DNA of 64,000 nucleotides from Escherichia coli. GTDB lineage: Bacteria; Pseudomonadota; Gammaproteobacteria; Enterobacterales; Enterobacteriaceae. The stretch lies in assembly GCF_050320075.1 (NCBI RefSeq), contig NZ_CP190018.1, one strand, 5' to 3'. The notes beneath the pieces were generated by a model, which worked only from the letters and a program-made list of their open reading frames with translations, was not told the origin of the DNA and made no database searches. The position numbers were made by a program, and so were the translations under genes. Numbering within the stretch: the stretch's first letter is position 1; every line of letters starts with the position of its first letter. Below are positions 3,662-53,017 of the stretch, one piece after another.

Positions 3662-4513
3662 TTAACTCGAGTAAGCGGCCAGCATTTCCTGCGCCGCCAG
3701 TTTACCCAACGCATTCGCTGCGAAAGGACTGTCGCCGGTGAGAACTTTACGGTCCTTATGTACTCGCCCGGTGATGTCGTCATTAATAATGTTCATGCAC
3801 ATTTTCTTCAGCTCTTCGCCGAAGTACCAGGTGAGATGACCCGGCATATAGCCTATCTCTGGCGTTTGTTTGTCTGCGGCGTCTGGGAATGCGCAAATGG
3901 AATAACCATTCAGTGGGTTATCGCCGTGGCGAAGTGCCAGAAAAGCCGCCGGACCGTGGCAAAGGGATATAACAAAACGGTCATTTTTGATTGCCCACTG
4001 TAAAGCGGCAGCCACGTCCTGGCTTTCTGGTAAACCAATAAGTGCGCCATGACCACCAGGAACAAAGATTGCTGCATATTCGCTGTCAGCGTTGAGGCTG
4101 GCGACAACATCCGCGAGTTTATTCGGATTGCGGAACAACGATTTATGCTGCTCAAAGAATGGCATTACTTTTTCATCTTTGTGTGGCATAGCCCAGTATT
4201 CAAACTTGGTCATCAGACCGGAAATGGTCGCCACTTCGAATTCGAAACCTGCAGCATGGAGATGATACAACGGCAGCAACGTTTCAATCGGATGGTTACC
4301 GGTCGAAAACAGTTTGCCGTTATCGGTCGGCAAATAACGTTCGTCCGCGGCGATCACCAGAATTTTATGTTTACCACGATAAGGTTTTGGGTAGTCCACG
4401 CCATCAAGATCAGAGACAGGACTAGTATATTGGCTAAGCGAATATTCTGAAGGGAAGAATGCATTATCTTCAGCAATATCGACCTGCGGATTTTTACTTG
4501 TTTGAACAGTCAT
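3662..4513 (-). CDS. hchA: Hsp31 glyoxalase / molecular chaperone (DJ-1/PfpI family)
   Basis: 283-aa ORF; conserved region ...FVISLCHGPAAFLALRHG... with the catalytic-cysteine context of Hsp31. Confidence 0.92.
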   Translation of the reverse strand: MTVQTSKNPQVDIAEDNAFFPSEYSLSQYTSPVSDLDGVDYPKPYRGKHKILVIAADERYLPTDNGKLFSTGNHPIETLLPLYHLHAAGFEFEVATISGLMTKFEYWAMPHKDEKVMPFFEQHKSLFRNPNKLADVVASLNADSEYAAIFVPGGHGALIGLPESQDVAAALQWAIKNDRFVISLCHGPAAFLALRHGDNPLNGYSICAFPDAADKQTPEIGYMPGHLTWYFGEELKKMCMNIINDDITGRVHKDRKVLTGDSPFAANALGKLAAQEMLAAYSS

Positions 4514-5023: not shown

Positions 5024-5060
5024 ATAAAAAAGCCTGAGTTCGATGAGGGACGAACTCAGG
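5024..5060 (-). terminator. Rho-independent terminator of the yedS porin gene
   Basis: Perfect inverted repeat GCCTGAGTTCG / CGAACTCAGGC with an A6 tract on + strand (T6 on minus) directly downstream of the porin stop. Confidence 0.65.
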
Positions 5061-5104
5061 CTAGTGTTAACTTTTACAGTAACACGCCGCGGCGCGTTGG
5101 CTGA

Positions 5105-6298
5105 TTAGAACTGGTAGACTAAGCCCACAGCAACGATATCATCGGTAGCGATGCCGTTTGCTTTGTAGAAGTCGTCGTCGTTGTCCAGCAGGTTGATTTT
5201 GTAATCAACGTAGGTGGACATGTTTTTGTTGAAGTAGTAAGTCGCACCAATATCAACGTATTTAACCAGATCTTTATTGGTGTAACGTGGGTCGCCGTTG
5301 CCGTCATGAGCCCAACCACCTAAATCCTTACCTTTAGATTGCAGGTAAGCGATGGACGGGCGTAGGCCGAAGTCGAACTGATACTGAGCAACAACTTCAA
5401 AGTTTTGGGTTTTGTTCGCAATACCACCTCTGTCAATGTCGTTATTGTCTTTTCCGCTGCCATATGCAGTCATATTACGTGTTTCTGCATACATTGCCGC
5501 TAAATAGACATTATTCGCATCATATTTAGCACCGACTGTCCATGCTTCAGCTGTTTCACCACCAGCATATTTATTCGAGCGTTGCTCACCTAAACCAGTA
5601 GCACGTTGGTTATCAGTACGGTCAGAGTTTGAATATGCAGCCCCGAGGCTTAACCCGAAGTCAAAGTCATAGGAAGTGGACATACCGAAACCGTCACCAT
5701 TTTCTTTAGACAGTTTACGATTATTACCATTACCAGAACCTTCTTGATCCCAAAGCCCACCCGATCCTTCATTATTACCCTGATATTGCAGAGCAAAGTT
5801 CAGGCCATCGACCTGACCAAAGAAGCCATTGTTACGGTAGGTTGCAACACCATTAGCACGACCGTTCAGGAAGTTGTCGGCACCAGCATAGGTATCGCCA
5901 CCAAATTCTGGCAGCATATCGGTCCATGCTTCAATGTCATATACGACACCGTAGTTACGACCATAGTCGAAAGTACCATTCTGACCAAAGCCTAAACCTG
6001 CAAATGCCAGACGCGTTGCGGGATTACCTTTGTCGCTTTCAGGACCGTTTGCGCCAATGTTAAATTCCCACTGACCATAACCAGTGAATTGGTCAGCGAT
6101 CTGAGTTTCACCTTTGAAACCGATACGGGCATATGACATGTCGCCATCGCTGCCAGCATCATCAGAGAAGTAGTGCAGGCCCGCTACTTTTCCGTACAAA
6201 TCCAGTTTATTACCATCTTTATTATAGACTTCAGCCGCATTTGCTGCGCCAGCAACTAATAACGCCGGGACCAGCATTGCCAGAACTTTTCTTTTCAT
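5105..6298 (-). CDS. yedS: Outer-membrane general porin, OmpC/OmpF family (YedS), apparently intact
   Basis: Signal peptide [21 protein letters not shown], aromatic/Gly-rich beta-barrel repeats, C-terminal ...VGLVYQF; start taken at the MKRKVL Met (6298) inside the longer ORF 5105..6328. Confidence 0.85.
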
Positions 6299-6610
6299 TA
6301 TGTATTCCCTTGTGATTATAATCTTCATGAATATATCAATAAGTGCCGTTATCCAAAAAAAAGCACATTTGGATACTATTCTATGAAGTTCATTTTATTT
6401 TAAAGATTACATGTAACAAATATATTTAAAAGATTTCAAAATGTTTCTAATCTATTTAATATAATTCAGAATTATGAATTCTAAATATAAATATTCATGA
6501 AAATTATAAATGTATATCAATATGTTATGAGTTGAGCGGAAACATAGGGGGTATCAATGATTGTTGCGCCAAACGGCTGGTGTGATCACGCGCACATTAA
6601 TGAAGGCATA

Positions 6611-6701
6611 AAAAAAGCCGGCATCATGCCGGCCCAAAAAAAATAAACAAGACGATAAAAGGCTAATAACGGAAGCATCATGACACAGAATAATAAAAAG
6701 G
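6611..6701 (-). ncRNA. rseX: Candidate small RNA ending in an intrinsic terminator; position fits RseX, which I recall lying between yedR and yedS
   Basis: Hairpin GCCGGCATGATGCCGGC (6618..6634) flanked by T-runs on the minus strand, in the divergent yedR-yedS intergenic region. 3' end supported by sequence; 5' end placed by assumed ~90 nt length. Confidence 0.4.
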
Positions 6702-6872
6702 TATAATTGTAATCAGTGCTAATATATTGATTGAATGAATTAATAAAGCCGATATCAAAGATAAATAAAATCGCTCAAAACGATTTTTCCTGTATTCACT
6801 GCCGTTGCGCAAAAATTATCTATTTGTTCAAAAAATGATTGAGTCTTGACTGGCTCATCCAATGTGGAAAAA

Positions 6873-6888
6873 TGTGACTTTTATCACA
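6873..6888. promoter_or_regulatory. Consensus CRP-binding site (TGTGA-N6-TCACA)
   Basis: Sequence TGTGACTTTTATCACA read directly; perfect match to both CRP half-sites, upstream of or within the 5' region of yedR. Confidence 0.55.
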
Positions 6889-6926
6889 TAATAGTACTAA
6901 GTCTGAATTTTCCGGGTTATCTCAAA

Positions 6927-7229
6927 ATGGAATACGGTTCGACAAAGATGGAAGAGAGACTCTCTCGCAGCCCTGGCGGCAAATTGGCTTTGTGGGCTTT
7001 CTATACATGGTGTGGCTATTTCGTCTGGGCAATGGCGCGTTACATCTGGGTGATGAGCCGGATCCCTGATGCCCCGGTGTCGGGATTTGAAAGCGATTTA
7101 GGCTCTACCGCGGGAAAGTGGTTAGGGGCACTGGTCGGATTTTTATTTATGGCTCTGGTCGGGGCATTGTTAGGCAGCATTGCCTGGTATACCCGACCTC
7201 GTCCCGCACGTAGCAGACGCTATGAATAA
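6927..7229 (+). CDS. yedR: Small inner-membrane protein YedR
   Basis: ORF 6846..7229 with two predicted TM helices; start uncertain (TTG 6846, GTG 6864, ATG 6927 or ATG 6948). ATG 6927 chosen because the CRP-like site lies upstream of it. Confidence 0.6.
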   Translation: MEYGSTKMEERLSRSPGGKLALWAFYTWCGYFVWAMARYIWVMSRIPDAPVSGFESDLGSTAGKWLGALVGFLFMALVGALLGSIAWYTRPRPARSRRYE

Positions 7230-36725: not shown

Positions 36726-38396
36726 ATGGCACAAGTCATTAATACCAACAGCCTCTCGCTGATCACTCAAAATAATATCAACAAGAACCAGTCTGCGCTG
36801 TCGAGTTCTATCGAGCGTCTGTCTTCTGGCTTGCGTATTAACAGCGCGAAGGATGACGCCGCAGGTCAGGCGATTGCTAACCGTTTTACTTCTAACATTA
36901 AAGGCCTGACTCAGGCTGCACGTAACGCCAACGACGGTATTTCTGTTGCACAGACCACTGAAGGCGCGCTGTCCGAAATCAACAACAACTTACAGCGTAT
37001 TCGTGAACTGACGGTTCAGGCGACGACCGGAACTAACTCCACCTCTGACCTGGACTCCATTCAGGACGAAATCAAATCCCGTCTTGATGAAATTGACCGC
37101 GTATCCGGCCAGACCCAGTTCAACGGCGTGAACGTACTGTCAAAAGATGGCTCGATGAAAATTCAGGTCGGCGCGAACGATGGTGAAACCATCACGATTG
37201 ATCTGAAAAAGATCGACTCTTCTACATTGAAGCTGACCGGTTTTAACGTGAATGGCGAAGGTGAAACAGCCAATACTGCTGCAACACTTAAAGATATGGT
37301 TGGTTTAAAACTCGATAATACGGGGGTCACTACAGCTGGAGTTAATAGATATATTGCTGACAAAGCCGTCGCAAGTAGCACGGATATTTTGAATGCGGTA
37401 GCTGGTGTTGATGGCAGTAAAGTTTCCACGGAGGCAGATGTTGGTTTTGGTGCGGCTGCCCCTGGTACGCCAGTGGAATATACTTATCATAAAGATACTA
37501 ACACATATACGGCTTCTGCTTCAGTTGATGCGACTCAACTGGCGGCATTCCTGAATCCTGAAGCGGGTGGTACCACTGCTGCAACAGTAAGTATTGGCAA
37601 CGGTACAACAGCTCAAGAGCAAAAAGTCATTATTGCTAAAGATGGTTCTTTAACTGCTGCTGATGACGGTGCCGCTCTCTATCTTGATACTAATGGTAAC
37701 TTAAGTAAAACTAACGCAGGCACTGATACTCAAGCTAAACTGTCTGACTTAATGGCAAACAATGCTAAGGCAAAAACAGTCATTACAACAGATAAAGGTA
37801 CATTTACTGCTAATACGACAAACGATGGTTTTGATGGGGTAGATATTTCTGTTGATGCTTCAACGTTTGCTAATGCCGTTAAAAATGAGACTTACACTGC
37901 AACTGTTGGTGTAACTTTACCAGCGACATATACAGTCAATAATGGCACTGCTGCATCAGCGTATTTAGTCGATGGAAAAGTGAGCCAAACTCCTGCCGAG
38001 TATTTTGCTCAAGCTGATGGCACTATTACTAGTGGTGAAAATGCGGCTACCAGTAAAGCTATCTATGTAAGTGCCAATGGTAACTTAACGACTAACACAA
38101 CGAGTGAATCTGAAGCGACTACCAACCCGCTGGCAGCATTGGATGACGCTATCGCGTCCATCGACAAATTCCGTTCATCCCTTGGTGCTATCCAGAACCG
38201 TCTGGATTCCGCGGTCACCAACCTGAACAACACCACTACCAACCTGTCCGAAGCGCAGTCCCGTATTCAGGACGCCGACTATGCGACCGAAGTGTCCAAC
38301 ATGTCGAAAGCGCAGATTATTCAGCAGGCCGGTAACTCCGTGCTGGCAAAAGCTAACCAGGTACCGCAGCAGGTTCTGTCTCTGCTGCAGGGTTAA
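36726..38396 (+). CDS. fliC: Flagellin FliC (556 aa; non-K-12 central domain)
   Basis: Conserved N-terminus [54 protein letters not shown] and C-terminus ...[13 protein letters not shown]; Thr/Ala/Gly-rich central region. Confidence 0.95.
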
Positions 38397-48602: not shown

Positions 48603-48689
48603 GCCCGGATGGTGGAATCGGTAGACACAAGGGATTTAAAATCCCTCGGCGTTCGCGCTGTGCGGGTTCAAGTCCCGCTCCGGGTACCA
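48603..48689 (+). tRNA. leuZ: tRNA-Leu (anticodon UAA), with long variable arm
   Basis: 87-nt GCCCGGATGGTGGAATCGGTAGACACAAGGGATTTAAAATCCC...GGTACCA. Confidence 0.95.
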
Positions 48690-48763
48690 TGGGAAAGATA
48701 AGAATAAAATCAAAGCAATAAGCAGTGTCGTGAAACCACCTTCGGGTGGTTTTTTTGTGCCTG
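48634..48763. repeat. Left direct repeat (attL-like): 3' part of leuZ plus its downstream terminator
   Basis: 130 bp identical, apart from one indel, to 52766..52896; covers the anticodon-loop-to-3'-end of tRNA-Leu and the hairpin AAACCACCTTCGGGTGGTTTTTTTGT. Confidence 0.85.
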
Positions 48764-48941
48764 AAATTCACGCCCTGTGCATATCCTGTGCTCACGGGGG
48801 GCAATGAGCTGCAATCTCAAGCCCGGCAATGCCGAATCGAACGTGTCGCCTCCAGCATAGAGAACCAGGCCGCTTTGCCTGTTTTCCGGTACTCTTCCGG
48901 GAAGGGGGGCCAGCTGAGCAAGCTATAATGCTCTGGCCACC

Positions 48942-49673
48942 CTAAGCACAAAGTTGCTTAATTCGTGCAATCACCTCATCTCTGTATTTCTGGTGTCCGC
49001 GCATAGCCCTTGGATGGGCTATCCTGAAACAGATTGTATGACCTGTTTTGAACTCCCATAGCTTCCCCGGAATGACTGAAGAAGTCTCATAGCCGCCTAG
49101 CTCAGTAAGCACCTGTTTTATGATGTAGTCTGTTCTCCGGGCTCCGGATGCAAAGATGGTGAAATCAGGCTCAAGGTGTTTAATTTGTACCGCCAGCAGT
49201 TTCAGCGAGGCTAATATGACTTCCTGCACTTCATTTTGAGGGCGATTGAGAGGGGGCAGTCCGTCGTAATCCCACGCCAGTAGATTGGCATACACGATAG
49301 CCTGAGGAGGAATATTAAGCTCCCGGGCCAGCCGGAAGTGATACTGCGTGAAGCGGCTACGTGATTTGTGGTTCGTGGTGCCATCATTTTGTGCCGGAAG
49401 ATGTTTCCTGTAACGATCTACAGCCTCTTCAACCACCTGCCCGATGGTGACGTCAGGTATAAGTCCCAGAACCCGTGATATCGTATTCTTACCATTCAGC
49501 GTATTCCAGCCAGCGGTTTCACGCCCAACCAGCATGATTTTTACCGGTGAGTGCCAGTATTCTTCAAAGGGCACGGGTAAAAAGACGCCTGAGTATTTAT
49601 CCTCATTCAGGTTAAATGACTGGGCGTCAACTTCCTGTAATATCCGTTTGTATGCGTCTAATAGTCTTTCCAT
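48942..49673 (-). CDS. Hypothetical protein, possible UDG-superfamily (DNA glycosylase-like) fold
   Basis: 243-aa ORF inside the islet; beta-strand plus Gly motif (VKIMLVGRETAGW) near the N-terminus and C-terminal HP motif (FRIAHPRAMRG), similar in position to UDG motifs 1 and 2. Weak, motif-level only. Confidence 0.35.
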   Translation of the reverse strand: MERLLDAYKRILQEVDAQSFNLNEDKYSGVFLPVPFEEYWHSPVKIMLVGRETAGWNTLNGKNTISRVLGLIPDVTIGQVVEEAVDRYRKHLPAQNDGTTNHKSRSRFTQYHFRLARELNIPPQAIVYANLLAWDYDGLPPLNRPQNEVQEVILASLKLLAVQIKHLEPDFTIFASGARRTDYIIKQVLTELGGYETSSVIPGKLWEFKTGHTICFRIAHPRAMRGHQKYRDEVIARIKQLCA

Positions 49674-49723
49674 TCTTCAATCCTGCCCCGTAATAAAAAT
49701 ACCTTCAGATATATATTATTTTC

Positions 49724-50440
49724 ATGATATCAATCAGATACATGAGGATAAATATGCAAAAATCCTTCCGATTCACCAATTCATCCATCAAAGCCCTTCC
49801 GGCAAACACAGATACCCGATCTACAGAGCTTGAGGTATCTGATACCGAAGTCATTGGCCTCAAATGCCTCTCAGGTCGAACGGGCAACAAACGTTTCCTC
49901 CTGCGCTACACATTCCACGGTACCAAAAAAAGTATCAGTATTGGCAGATTCCCTGAAATCGATGTGGGAACAGCCCGTCAGATAGCTCGTCGTCACAAGG
50001 AGGCGATTGCACTGGGAAATGACCCTAAGGCAGAGCGCGATAATTATCGGGCGATGCCAACGCTTAGTGAGTTTTTTCACCAGACCTATGTTCCGTTCAT
50101 CAAGCGCCATAAAAAGTCCTGGGATAAGGATGTTCAGCGTTTCACGCAATACATTGAACCTCGTCTGGGGAAGATACGTTACTGCGACCTTCAGGCCCGG
50201 GAAATCCAGCAGGTGCTTTTTGACATGCTTGAGGGCCGTATTCACGGCCAGCAGTATGCACCGTCTACCTGTAACAGGGCACTGGCTATTCTGAAAACCA
50301 TGGGCCGTTATGCGCTACGACAGGATGTCCTGGAGAAGAATGAAGCCGATAAGATCCCTTTGCTGAAGGAGAATAATCACCGGACGCGCTTTTTTGACGC
50401 TGATGAGATCAGGAGAATCCTTGATGCTGCGTCTCGATAA
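49724..50440 (+). pseudogene. Truncated tyrosine recombinase (P4-type integrase N-terminal arm-binding plus SAM-like region; catalytic domain absent)
   Basis: 238-aa ORF with integrase N-terminal signature (FTNSSIKALP..., GLKCLSGRTGNKRFLLRYTFHGTKKSISIGRFPEIDVGTARQIARRHKEA) but ending before the catalytic R..HxxR..Y domain; adjacent to a tRNA att site. Confidence 0.7.
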
Positions 50441-50454
50441 CCCAATAAAGCTGC

Positions 50455-50490
<36 letters not shown>

Positions 50491-50491
50491 C

Positions 50492-50535
<44 letters not shown>

Positions 50536-50655
50536 TTCTAAGGCTTGCTTTAATGCTAAGGCTAAATGATTTTGATATAGTAAGTTCATACTTAGCGGGC
50601 AGATGCCCACAGACATAGTACCGAAAATAAATCAGGTATTCTGCGAGATTTCAGT

Positions 50656-51984
50656 ATGAAAATAGCCAATATTAGACTTACGAATTTTAGATGTTTTGAC
50701 GAGTTTAGTGTTGATTTTGACCCAAGACTTACAGTTCTCATTGCTCGTAATGGTAGAGGGAAATCTACTCTGCTTGACGCGGTAGCATTAGCTTTAGGAC
50801 CATTTTTAACTCGTTTGCCAGGGATCAAAGGGCTAAGTTTCAAGAAAACCGATTTCCGGATCGACGAAAATGGAGACCAGCCGTCCTATATGCGAGTAAG
50901 TTGTACTAGTACAACGGGTATAACTTGGGATAGAACTGAGCGAAGAGATCTGACAAAAAAAACGTTAGGTAGCATCCCCCAAGGGGCAGCCCTTAAAGCC
51001 TTGAATGATTACGTCGATACGTTCATTGATTCTCACAATGAGAATAAACACTATACATTGCCAATTTTTGTTTATTACGGAACTGGGCGTGGAGTGTTTG
51101 ATATACCACTCAGAAAACGTGCATTTAACAAGCATTTTTCTCGATTTGAGGCCCTTGACGGTGCTCTTGAAAGCAAAACAAATTTCAAAAGATTTGTGCA
51201 ATATTTTTATTTTCTTGAAGAAAAAGAAAATAGATTACAGAAAGAGCAACGATCATTTGAAGTAGAAATCCCTGAATTAAGGGCAATACGCTTGGCTGTG
51301 GAAAAATTACTGCCAGAGTTTAGCAATATTCGCTCGGCAGTACCTGCTGGAATTATGGTCGATTGGTGTAAGCCTATTGGAAATGGTGAAACAACCATAC
51401 AAAAGCTAAGGATTGAACAACTTAGTGATGGCTATAGAACAACTTTAGCTATGGTTATGGATATTGCAGCAAGAATGGCAGAAGCTAACCCCTATTCGAG
51501 TGATCCTCTAAGTTCTGAGGGGATAATTCTCATTGATGAGGTAGATCTGCATCTGCATCCGGAATGGCAACGTGAGTTTCTCCCTAGATTAATCAACGTT
51601 TTCCCTCATCTTCAGTTCATAGTATCGACGCATTCACCATTTATCATCCAGTCTGTCAAAGAGGGGATGTTGGTCGATCTTGATAAAGATGACATTTCGG
51701 ATAGCCCCTCTTTGAATAAAGAACTCAGCATCGAAGATATTGCTGAGGGTGTAATGGGAATGGAAAAAGTTCAACGAAGTGAATTGTTTAACAAACAAGT
51801 CGCAGTTTCAGATAGATATTATCAGTTACTGAATGAAGGAAGAAGTGAAAGCGACCCAGAGGTAAGGAAGCTCTCCGCTGAGCTTGATAAATTGGAAGAG
51901 TTTTTTGGAGATAACCCAGCTTATGTAGCCTTACTTCGTGCTGAGCGCCGAAAAATAATGGGGACACAAGGAAGTAAACAATGA
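50656..51984 (+). CDS. ABC/AAA-type ATPase (AAA_15/AAA_21-like), candidate Septu PtuA
   Basis: 442 aa; Walker A LIARNGRGKSTLLDAV, Walker B/D-loop IILIDEVDLHLHP, H-loop-like FIVSTHSPFI; AT-rich; stop overlaps start of downstream HNH gene (ATGA). Confidence 0.7.
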   Translation: MKIANIRLTNFRCFDEFSVDFDPRLTVLIARNGRGKSTLLDAVALALGPFLTRLPGIKGLSFKKTDFRIDENGDQPSYMRVSCTSTTGITWDRTERRDLTKKTLGSIPQGAALKALNDYVDTFIDSHNENKHYTLPIFVYYGTGRGVFDIPLRKRAFNKHFSRFEALDGALESKTNFKRFVQYFYFLEEKENRLQKEQRSFEVEIPELRAIRLAVEKLLPEFSNIRSAVPAGIMVDWCKPIGNGETTIQKLRIEQLSDGYRTTLAMVMDIAARMAEANPYSSDPLSSEGIILIDEVDLHLHPEWQREFLPRLINVFPHLQFIVSTHSPFIIQSVKEGMLVDLDKDDISDSPSLNKELSIEDIAEGVMGMEKVQRSELFNKQVAVSDRYYQLLNEGRSESDPEVRKLSAELDKLEEFFGDNPAYVALLRAERRKIMGTQGSKQ

Positions 51985-52592
51985 GACCTGTAAATCGACC
52001 TCCATATAATGGAACTGTTTATGCAGATTATAAATCATTTTTACCTTCGCTATTAACTGCATATGGCGGATATTGTTCTTATTGTGAGCGGCCGGATAAG
52101 GTTGATGTGGAGCATGTTGTCCCAAAAACGCATGCACCACTTTTGATTACTGATTGGAACAATTTTTTACTGGGTTGCCCTCGCTGTAACCGAGATTTTA
52201 AAAAAAGTAAGAATACTCAACGTATAGGCTATGTTTGGCCAGATGTTGAGAATACATTTAATTTATTGACATACCATCCAGATGGTAGAGTAGAGCCTAA
52301 GCAGGGGCTGTCTGCCGGACTAACTGCGCAGGTACAGGCTACTATTGATTTGGTATGTCTTGATGATGGTAACCAAGTACAAAAAACTTTAAATCTTGGT
52401 AGAAGGAGATATTTTGGACTCGCGAATAAGGCCAAGACTCTTTATCTGAGTAATTTATTGAGTATTGATGAGGTCATGGATATGGCTCAGTTAGGATATT
52501 GGTCGATCTGGTATAATGTGTTTCAAGGTGTACCTGCTGTCCTTTCAGCTTTGGAGAATTCCTATCCTAATACCGCTATAAACCGCCCATGA
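51981..52592 (+). CDS. HNH endonuclease, candidate Septu PtuB
   Basis: 203 aa; HNH/zinc-finger motif CSYCERPDKVDVEHVVPK...NNFLLGCPRCNRDFK (C-x2-C ... H ... N ... C-x2-C); translationally coupled to the upstream ATPase. Confidence 0.7.
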   Translation: MRPVNRPPYNGTVYADYKSFLPSLLTAYGGYCSYCERPDKVDVEHVVPKTHAPLLITDWNNFLLGCPRCNRDFKKSKNTQRIGYVWPDVENTFNLLTYHPDGRVEPKQGLSAGLTAQVQATIDLVCLDDGNQVQKTLNLGRRRYFGLANKAKTLYLSNLLSIDEVMDMAQLGYWSIWYNVFQGVPAVLSALENSYPNTAINRP

Positions 52593-52765
52593 CATAGGTG
52601 AAATGAATTGGCTCAGGTGCGTACAAGGGGAAGACTTACCTGTGCAGCTTCTGTGTTCAACGTTATCCATGTCTATCTATTTACTGCCAATTACAGTAAA
52701 GTTGGTGGATAATTACAGCAAAGTGTTGCAATGGGTTGCTATGTAAATCATTGATCCTGCGTAGA

Positions 52766-52896
52766 ATTTAAAATCCCTCGGCGTTCGCGCTGTGCGGGTT
52801 CAAGTACCCGCTCCGGGTACCATGGGAAAGATAAGAATAAAATCAAAGCAATAAGCAGTGTCGTGAAACCACCTTCGGGTGGTTTTTTTGTGCCTG
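52766..52896. repeat. Right direct repeat (attR-like): partial copy of leuZ 3' part plus terminator
   Basis: 131-bp copy of 48634..48763 with a single-nucleotide insertion (CAAGTACCCGCT versus CAAGTCCCGCT); lacks the tRNA 5' half, so it is not a functional tRNA. Confidence 0.85.
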
Positions 52897-53017
52897 CAAC
52901 TTGTCGTTACACCCTCCTTAATTTTTAATCACCGGCAAAGCCACTCAAAAAGTATCTCTGTTACGGACCGACATGTAAGATAGGTGCTGGCGAGTTGAGA
53001 TCCACAAGGAAAAGCGT

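Follow-up and report, generated by a model that had tools for sequence, protein, structure and literature searches.

The gene yedS of Escherichia coli encodes a relative of the general porin OmpC, whose constriction zone we take to comprise a basic cluster (K16, R37, R74 and R124) together with the acidic residues D105 and E109 on loop 3. YedS is named in the title of a 2013 paper by Warner et al. (Antimicrob Agents Chemother 57:1935), which deals with a clinical isolate of E. coli resistant to carbapenems; the same paper is said to describe the small RNA MicF as a repressor of yedS. A later paper describes the mode of resistance as the combination of an active yedS porin gene and an inactivated marR (PMC4048246), and yedS appears to mediate carbapenem resistance according to another (PMC11267920). 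Overproduction of sigma-E lowers the level of the transcript labelled 'yedS (ompS1)' 2.5-fold in E. coli (PMC2731931), and in Salmonella the ompS mRNA is a target of the small RNA RybB (PMC1804206). Salmonella ompS1 is quiescent, silenced by H-NS and StpA with LeuO antagonising the silencing, and ompS1 mutants are attenuated in mice (PMC4264507). OmpS1 of Salmonella and YedS of E. coli are both minor OmpC-like porins, and both are among the omp transcripts repressed by sigma-E and RybB. Their putative orthology is suggested by a single source, the label 'yedS (ompS1)' in PMC2731931, and regulation of E. coli yedS by LeuO or OmpR would be an assumption carried over from Salmonella OmpS1. The small RNA gene rseX, the neighbour of yedS, is repressed by H-NS and StpA in E. 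coli (PMC8313858).

The window analysed here is a stretch of 64,000 nucleotides from E. coli (contig NZ_CP190018.1 of assembly GCF_050320075.1). It contains a porin gene in the gene order hprS, hchA, porin, rseX, drpB (yedR), yedJ and dcm, which is that of the K-12 yedS locus and is identical in E. coli Ec-U3. The gene of the Hfq-binding small RNA rseX lies directly upstream of yedS, both on the minus strand, just where K-12 has it, and is provided with a terminator of its own. The coordinates of these and other features are collected in Table 1.

Table 1. Features of the yedS locus and of other parts of the window (position 1 is the first nucleotide of the 64,000).
Feature	Coordinates	Strand	Remarks
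hchA	3662-4513	minus	neighbour of yedS
intrinsic terminator of yedS	5031..5062	minus	12-bp stem, then TTTTTATT
yedS CDS	5105..6298	minus	397 codons plus stop; general porin, OmpC subfamily
variable, mature-protein part of yedS	~5130-6230
signal-peptide coding part	6236..6298	minus	21 aa; cleavage between ANA and AE, inferred from OmpC alignment
predicted RybB 5' seed pairing site	6278..6295	minus	mRNA +4 to +21, codons 2-7
Shine-Dalgarno-like AAGGGAA	6305..6311	minus	6 nt before ATG; read from sequence
AT-rich upstream regulatory region	6299..6609	minus	311 nt; 27% GC against 49% for the window
sigma-70-like matches (two, weak)	6485..6458; 6419..6392	minus	just 9/12 consensus; not functional evidence
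rseX small RNA	6610..6699	minus	Rfam RF01401, 95.1 bits (gathering score 50)
terminator of rseX	6635..6615
drpB	6846-7229	plus	followed by yedJ and dcm
DsrA small RNA gene	15038-15124	plus	Rfam, 102.5 bits
central fliC	37216-38127
leuZ islet	48767-52765		4.1 kb
direct repeats flanking the islet	48634-48766; 52766-52899		~133 bp

A preliminary description of this DNA, made by inspection of the sequence, had claimed for the porin an uninterrupted frame of 397 amino acids with a signal peptide and a C-terminal aromatic residue, followed by a clean intrinsic terminator, and all of these features withstood closer analysis. Translation of the 1194 nt of the coding sequence, which begins MKRKVLAML and ends VGLVYQF, meets no internal stop codon. 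In the list of open reading frames the minus-strand frame extends over 5105..6328, with the internal ATG at 6298 giving the 397-aa protein, and the coding sequence annotated in Ec-U3 is 100% identical, with matching start and end in RefSeq (WP_106475183.1). The upstream ATG at 6328, which would give a protein of 407 aa, was rejected as the start, because the ribosome binding site, the OmpC-like signal peptide and the RefSeq start all favour 6298. The signal peptide, as called from the alignment, is near-identical to that of K-12 OmpC, and the C-terminal residue is Phe, the aromatic assembly signal of porins. The GC-rich terminator hairpin lies 42 nt past the stop codon, and its predicted fold (-23.4 kcal/mol, z = -6.6) was equalled in stability by none of 200 shuffled sequences.

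The membership of the OmpC/OmpF family proposed in the same description is equally well founded. Residues 27-397 match Pfam Porin_1 (PF00267; E 7.6e-143, 476.4 bits against a cutoff of 23.7), and the protein scores 546.8 bits with the NCBIfam OmpC subfamily model NF007841 (cutoff 484) while remaining under the cutoffs of the NCBIfam OmpF and PhoE equivalogs. The closest solved structures are OmpK37 of Klebsiella (E 6.5e-147), and next OmpK36 and OmpC. YedS has in common with these three proteins the fold family, the eyelet residues (6/6 conserved at the positions aligned to OmpC K16, R37, R74, R124, D105 and E109) and the PEFGGD motif of loop 3, here present as PEFGGDTY. High similarity to solved porins, OmpK37 above all, makes a trimeric 16-stranded beta-barrel very likely for YedS; the strands of an AlphaFold2 model computed from an alignment of 17 sequences follow a pattern that would suit a barrel, but the mean pLDDT of the model is 49. 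Mature YedS is some 30 residues longer than mature OmpC (376 against 346), and the extra length lies in segments which face gaps in OmpC and OmpK37, between the predicted strands of this low-confidence model.

The score above the NF007841 cutoff, and the product name 'porin OmpC' given to the gene by PGAP, might suggest that the gene is either ompC or a copy recently duplicated from it. Hardly any credence can be given to this identification, which was rejected: YedS is just 61% identical in amino acid sequence to K-12 OmpC, and its gene has hchA on one side and rseX/drpB on the other, which is the yedS locus, and does not lie beside micF and rcsD. NF007841 is in any case a subfamily model and not an equivalog, and genomes have a median of three separate porin matches, with the true ompC elsewhere among them. 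OmpC and YedS differ in chromosomal locus and in regulation.

It had been stated in the preliminary description that yedS is broken in K-12, and this proved accurate. The gene is annotated in MG1655 as a pseudogene (b4496, formerly b1964-b1966), and alignment with the window gene places two lesions in it: codon 162 reads TAG in place of CAG, and 1 nt is deleted at nucleotide 666 of the window gene. The window copy is free of both. Nucleotide identity between the window gene and the K-12 pseudogene is 89.8%, against 94.9% over the 3.57-kb locus as a whole.

An intact copy of yedS is nevertheless the common state in E. coli, and for that reason its presence here is not remarkable. When the 3.57-kb locus was used as a megablast query, it was found in 5,425 of 5,426 complete E. 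coli genomes, with a 'porin' annotated between drpB and hchA in nearly all rows; the window allele itself, at an identity of at least 99%, occurs in 60 of the 5,426, and identical or near-identical copies in other genomes are annotated as an intact CDS. Sixteen non-K-12 loci (L004-L019) were picked so as to be spread down the megablast ranking. An open frame is present in 14 of them, and the two exceptions (L007 and L019) are both from O157:H7 and have one frameshift in common, a 1-nt deletion near nt 605. The distribution of the individual lesions was assessed by counting exact matches to 61-nt probes centred on each of them among the 5,426 genomes. The probe for the K-12 stop codon matched 357 genomes and that for the K-12 frameshift 371, and among the matches listed these are K-12-derived or other laboratory strains. 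The probe for the O157:H7 frameshift matched 298 genomes, and the strains listed are O157:H7 and related ones. Insertion sequences interrupt yedS in four of 60 rows spread over the megablast output. In the two O157:H7 loci, the adjacent cell-division gene drpB is annotated as frameshifted along with yedS (positions 1-281 and 932-2118).

Loss of the frame is thus confined to particular lineages, and it is K-12 that departs from the rule. This makes K-12 a poor reference for the yedS locus, at which the porin gene is open in most natural E. coli. The YedS of the clinical isolate of Warner et al. (2013) is reportedly encoded at the same locus, is the same kind of protein and is likewise intact in a strain other than K-12. 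The observation of an intact yedS in the window is accordingly correct but ordinary; yedS is an accessory porin gene that has already been described.

It is for the extreme diversity of its alleles that the locus is notable, rather than for the intactness of any one copy. At least four allele classes can be told apart in the part of yedS that encodes the mature protein, with 51-71% amino acid identity between classes, a divergence about as great as that of OmpC from OmpF. Class A contains the window allele together with those of K-12 and O157, which are 82-99% identical in amino acid sequence, and was found in 1,661 genomes; class B (the type of loci L010 and L011; 69-71% identity to A) in 366; class C (the UTI89 and ATCC 11775 type; 52-55% to A) in 1,627; and class D (the type of L015 and L018; 51-53% to A) in 1,140, all out of 5,426 and counted at a megablast coverage of at least 80%. 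Across the classes the encoded proteins range in length from 352 to 404 aa. The flanks of the variable segment are 97-100% identical; they take in the upstream region together with the 5' UTR and the first ~70 nt of the coding sequence, and those ~70 nt are the same in all allele classes sampled. Between the boundaries nucleotide identity falls abruptly to 41-77%. The 5' boundary follows closely on the signal peptide, and the 3' boundary is equally sharp, identity resuming some 25 nt ahead of the stop codon. Class A is itself mosaic: compared with K-12, both ends of the window gene are 97-100% identical, while the central 400 nt are just 57-85% identical. The variable stretches are probably surface loops, since they coincide with the gaps in OmpC and OmpK37 and with the inter-strand segments of the low-confidence model.

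The allele classes are treated unevenly by automated annotation. PGAP labels class A and class B alleles 'ompC: porin OmpC' and those of classes C and D plain 'porin', and neither class C nor class D reaches any NCBIfam porin cutoff. As a result, a second ompC seems to be present in genomes, and automated calls of porin loss in resistance genomics could be misled.

The great divergence of the centre of the gene, far above the genome average, might alternatively be taken to mean that yedS is not native to the chromosome and arrived on a prophage or island, as with nmpC/lc. The AT-rich surroundings are of the kind typical of acquired DNA bound by H-NS, and a possible Salmonella origin has been raised for rseX on account of its closeness to yedS (PMC8313858). 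Such an origin is nonetheless very improbable, and the proposal was rejected on account of the conserved flanks and the lack of mobility genes. In all genomes sampled the flanks are 97-100% identical; yedS is bordered by neither an integrase nor an IS or repeat; and a porin gene occupies this position in almost all of the 5,426 genomes. The pattern points instead to allelic exchange in a resident gene, and not to the insertion of an element.

The sequence pattern of the allele classes is solid. It has the look of alleles being replaced through recombination, with diversifying or balancing selection at work, as in surface antigens. It is tempting to go further and to suggest, as a tentative proposal to which we give rather less than even odds, that the yedS locus is a porin 'cassette' site under balancing or diversifying selection, in which a gene-sized segment for the mature porin is swapped between an invariant promoter region, 5' UTR, RybB site and signal peptide. 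On such a reading the window allele would be the class-A, long-loop state of the polymorphism. If the proposal is correct, and if phages, colicins or host immunity are the driving force, then phage host range would depend in part on the allele class, a determinant so far unrecognised, and the residual permeability of E. coli to antibiotics could be affected by it as well. An incomplete search of the literature that mentions yedS found no description of this polymorphism, and the allele-class structure could merit a population-genetic study.

The first 16 nt of RybB, a sigma-E-dependent small RNA, were taken from K-12 and matched with yedS mRNA from -80 to +40 using RNAduplex, and the best duplex (-17.2 kcal/mol, z = -3.97) was equalled by none of 200 shuffles. 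In ompC, a published RybB target that served as the positive control, the same script returned a site at -50..-41 with -17.4 kcal/mol. The site in yedS represents a predicted potential for pairing. The surrounding stretch of yedS mRNA, from -40 to +40 (6258-6338), shows no difference among 15 of the 16 loci and a single SNP in the remaining one, across all allele classes. A comparable comparison for MicF, admittedly crude (MicF nt 1-35 against mRNA -80..+30), gave a best duplex of -8.7 kcal/mol with the yedS leader, weaker than the shuffled mean (z = +1.15); since this is no better than shuffled sequence, a direct MicF site in the yedS leader is not claimed.

Silencing of the upstream region by H-NS is likely, given its GC content of 27% and the analogy with Salmonella ompS1 and with rseX. 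The same low GC content, together with the RybB pairing site, suggests that the expression of yedS is probably weak or conditional. Antibodies to recombinant YedS were found in just 1 of 141 healthy people (PMC11242715), a rarity that fits either low expression or a mismatch between alleles.

These indications might be pressed further, to the view that yedS is intact yet cryptic: so tightly silenced that it has no part in the permeability or phage sensitivity of this strain, its frame simply not yet decayed. The quiescence of Salmonella ompS1 (PMC4264507), the AT-rich upstream region, the repression of rseX next door by H-NS and StpA (PMC8313858) and the scarcity of anti-YedS antibodies in people (PMC11242715) are all in keeping with this, as is the independent decay of the gene in K-12, by a stop codon and a frameshift, and in O157:H7, by a frameshift, as well as by IS elements in four of 60 records. 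On the other hand, the frame is open in 14 of 16 natural loci in spite of 30-50% amino acid divergence between classes, and neutral decay would not keep so many of them open. The pore residues are conserved, an active yedS is credited with a role in resistance in PMC4048246, which cites Warner et al., and the attenuation in mice of Salmonella ompS1 mutants (PMC4264507) again argues for a function. A wholly cryptic yedS is consequently possible, but on balance doubtful.

There is little doubt that the window gene is an intact yedS allele that specifies an exported, trimeric porin, one that is probably expressed weakly or conditionally. By homology with described porins, YedS would be exported by way of its Sec signal peptide and inserted into the outer membrane by the Bam machinery, which would recognise the C-terminal aromatic signal. 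The trimeric 16-stranded barrel would then allow the diffusion of small hydrophilic solutes, among them beta-lactams, including carbapenems. Silencing of the H-NS type and the small RNAs of envelope stress (RybB as predicted above, and MicF reportedly) may keep YedS at a low level. That the intact protein functions as a porin we infer from its sequence, and the term 'functional' is used with this restriction because related porins are quiescent.

YedS would matter most where OmpC and OmpF have been lost, as a residual route for the entry of carbapenems. In the strain studied here, carbapenems and other small hydrophilic drugs might still enter by way of the intact YedS if both major porins were to be lost, and YedS may also act as a receptor for phages or colicins. 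The relevance of an intact YedS to carbapenem susceptibility, which had been put forward in the preliminary description, is already in print (Warner et al. 2013, cited in PMC4048246 and PMC11267920). The status of yedS is useful for interpreting resistance that arises from porin loss, and this point too is to be found in the literature.

Several features elsewhere in the window deserve mention. At the tRNA-Leu gene leuZ an islet has been inserted that is absent from K-12 and is flanked by direct repeats. It contains a truncated integrase, of which the Arm DNA-binding domain alone is present, and an ORF of 243 aa that has no family match, as well as a Septu anti-phage system consisting of PtuA (E 2e-190) and the HNH protein PtuB (E 6e-61). 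The comparison with K-12 covered the window outside positions 1-348 and 12349-16351, and the gaps in its coverage are not evidence of an insertion. In its central part, fliC finds no counterpart in K-12 fliC by megablast, a sign that the flagellar H-antigen is of another type. The gene for the small RNA DsrA is present in its expected place near rcsA.
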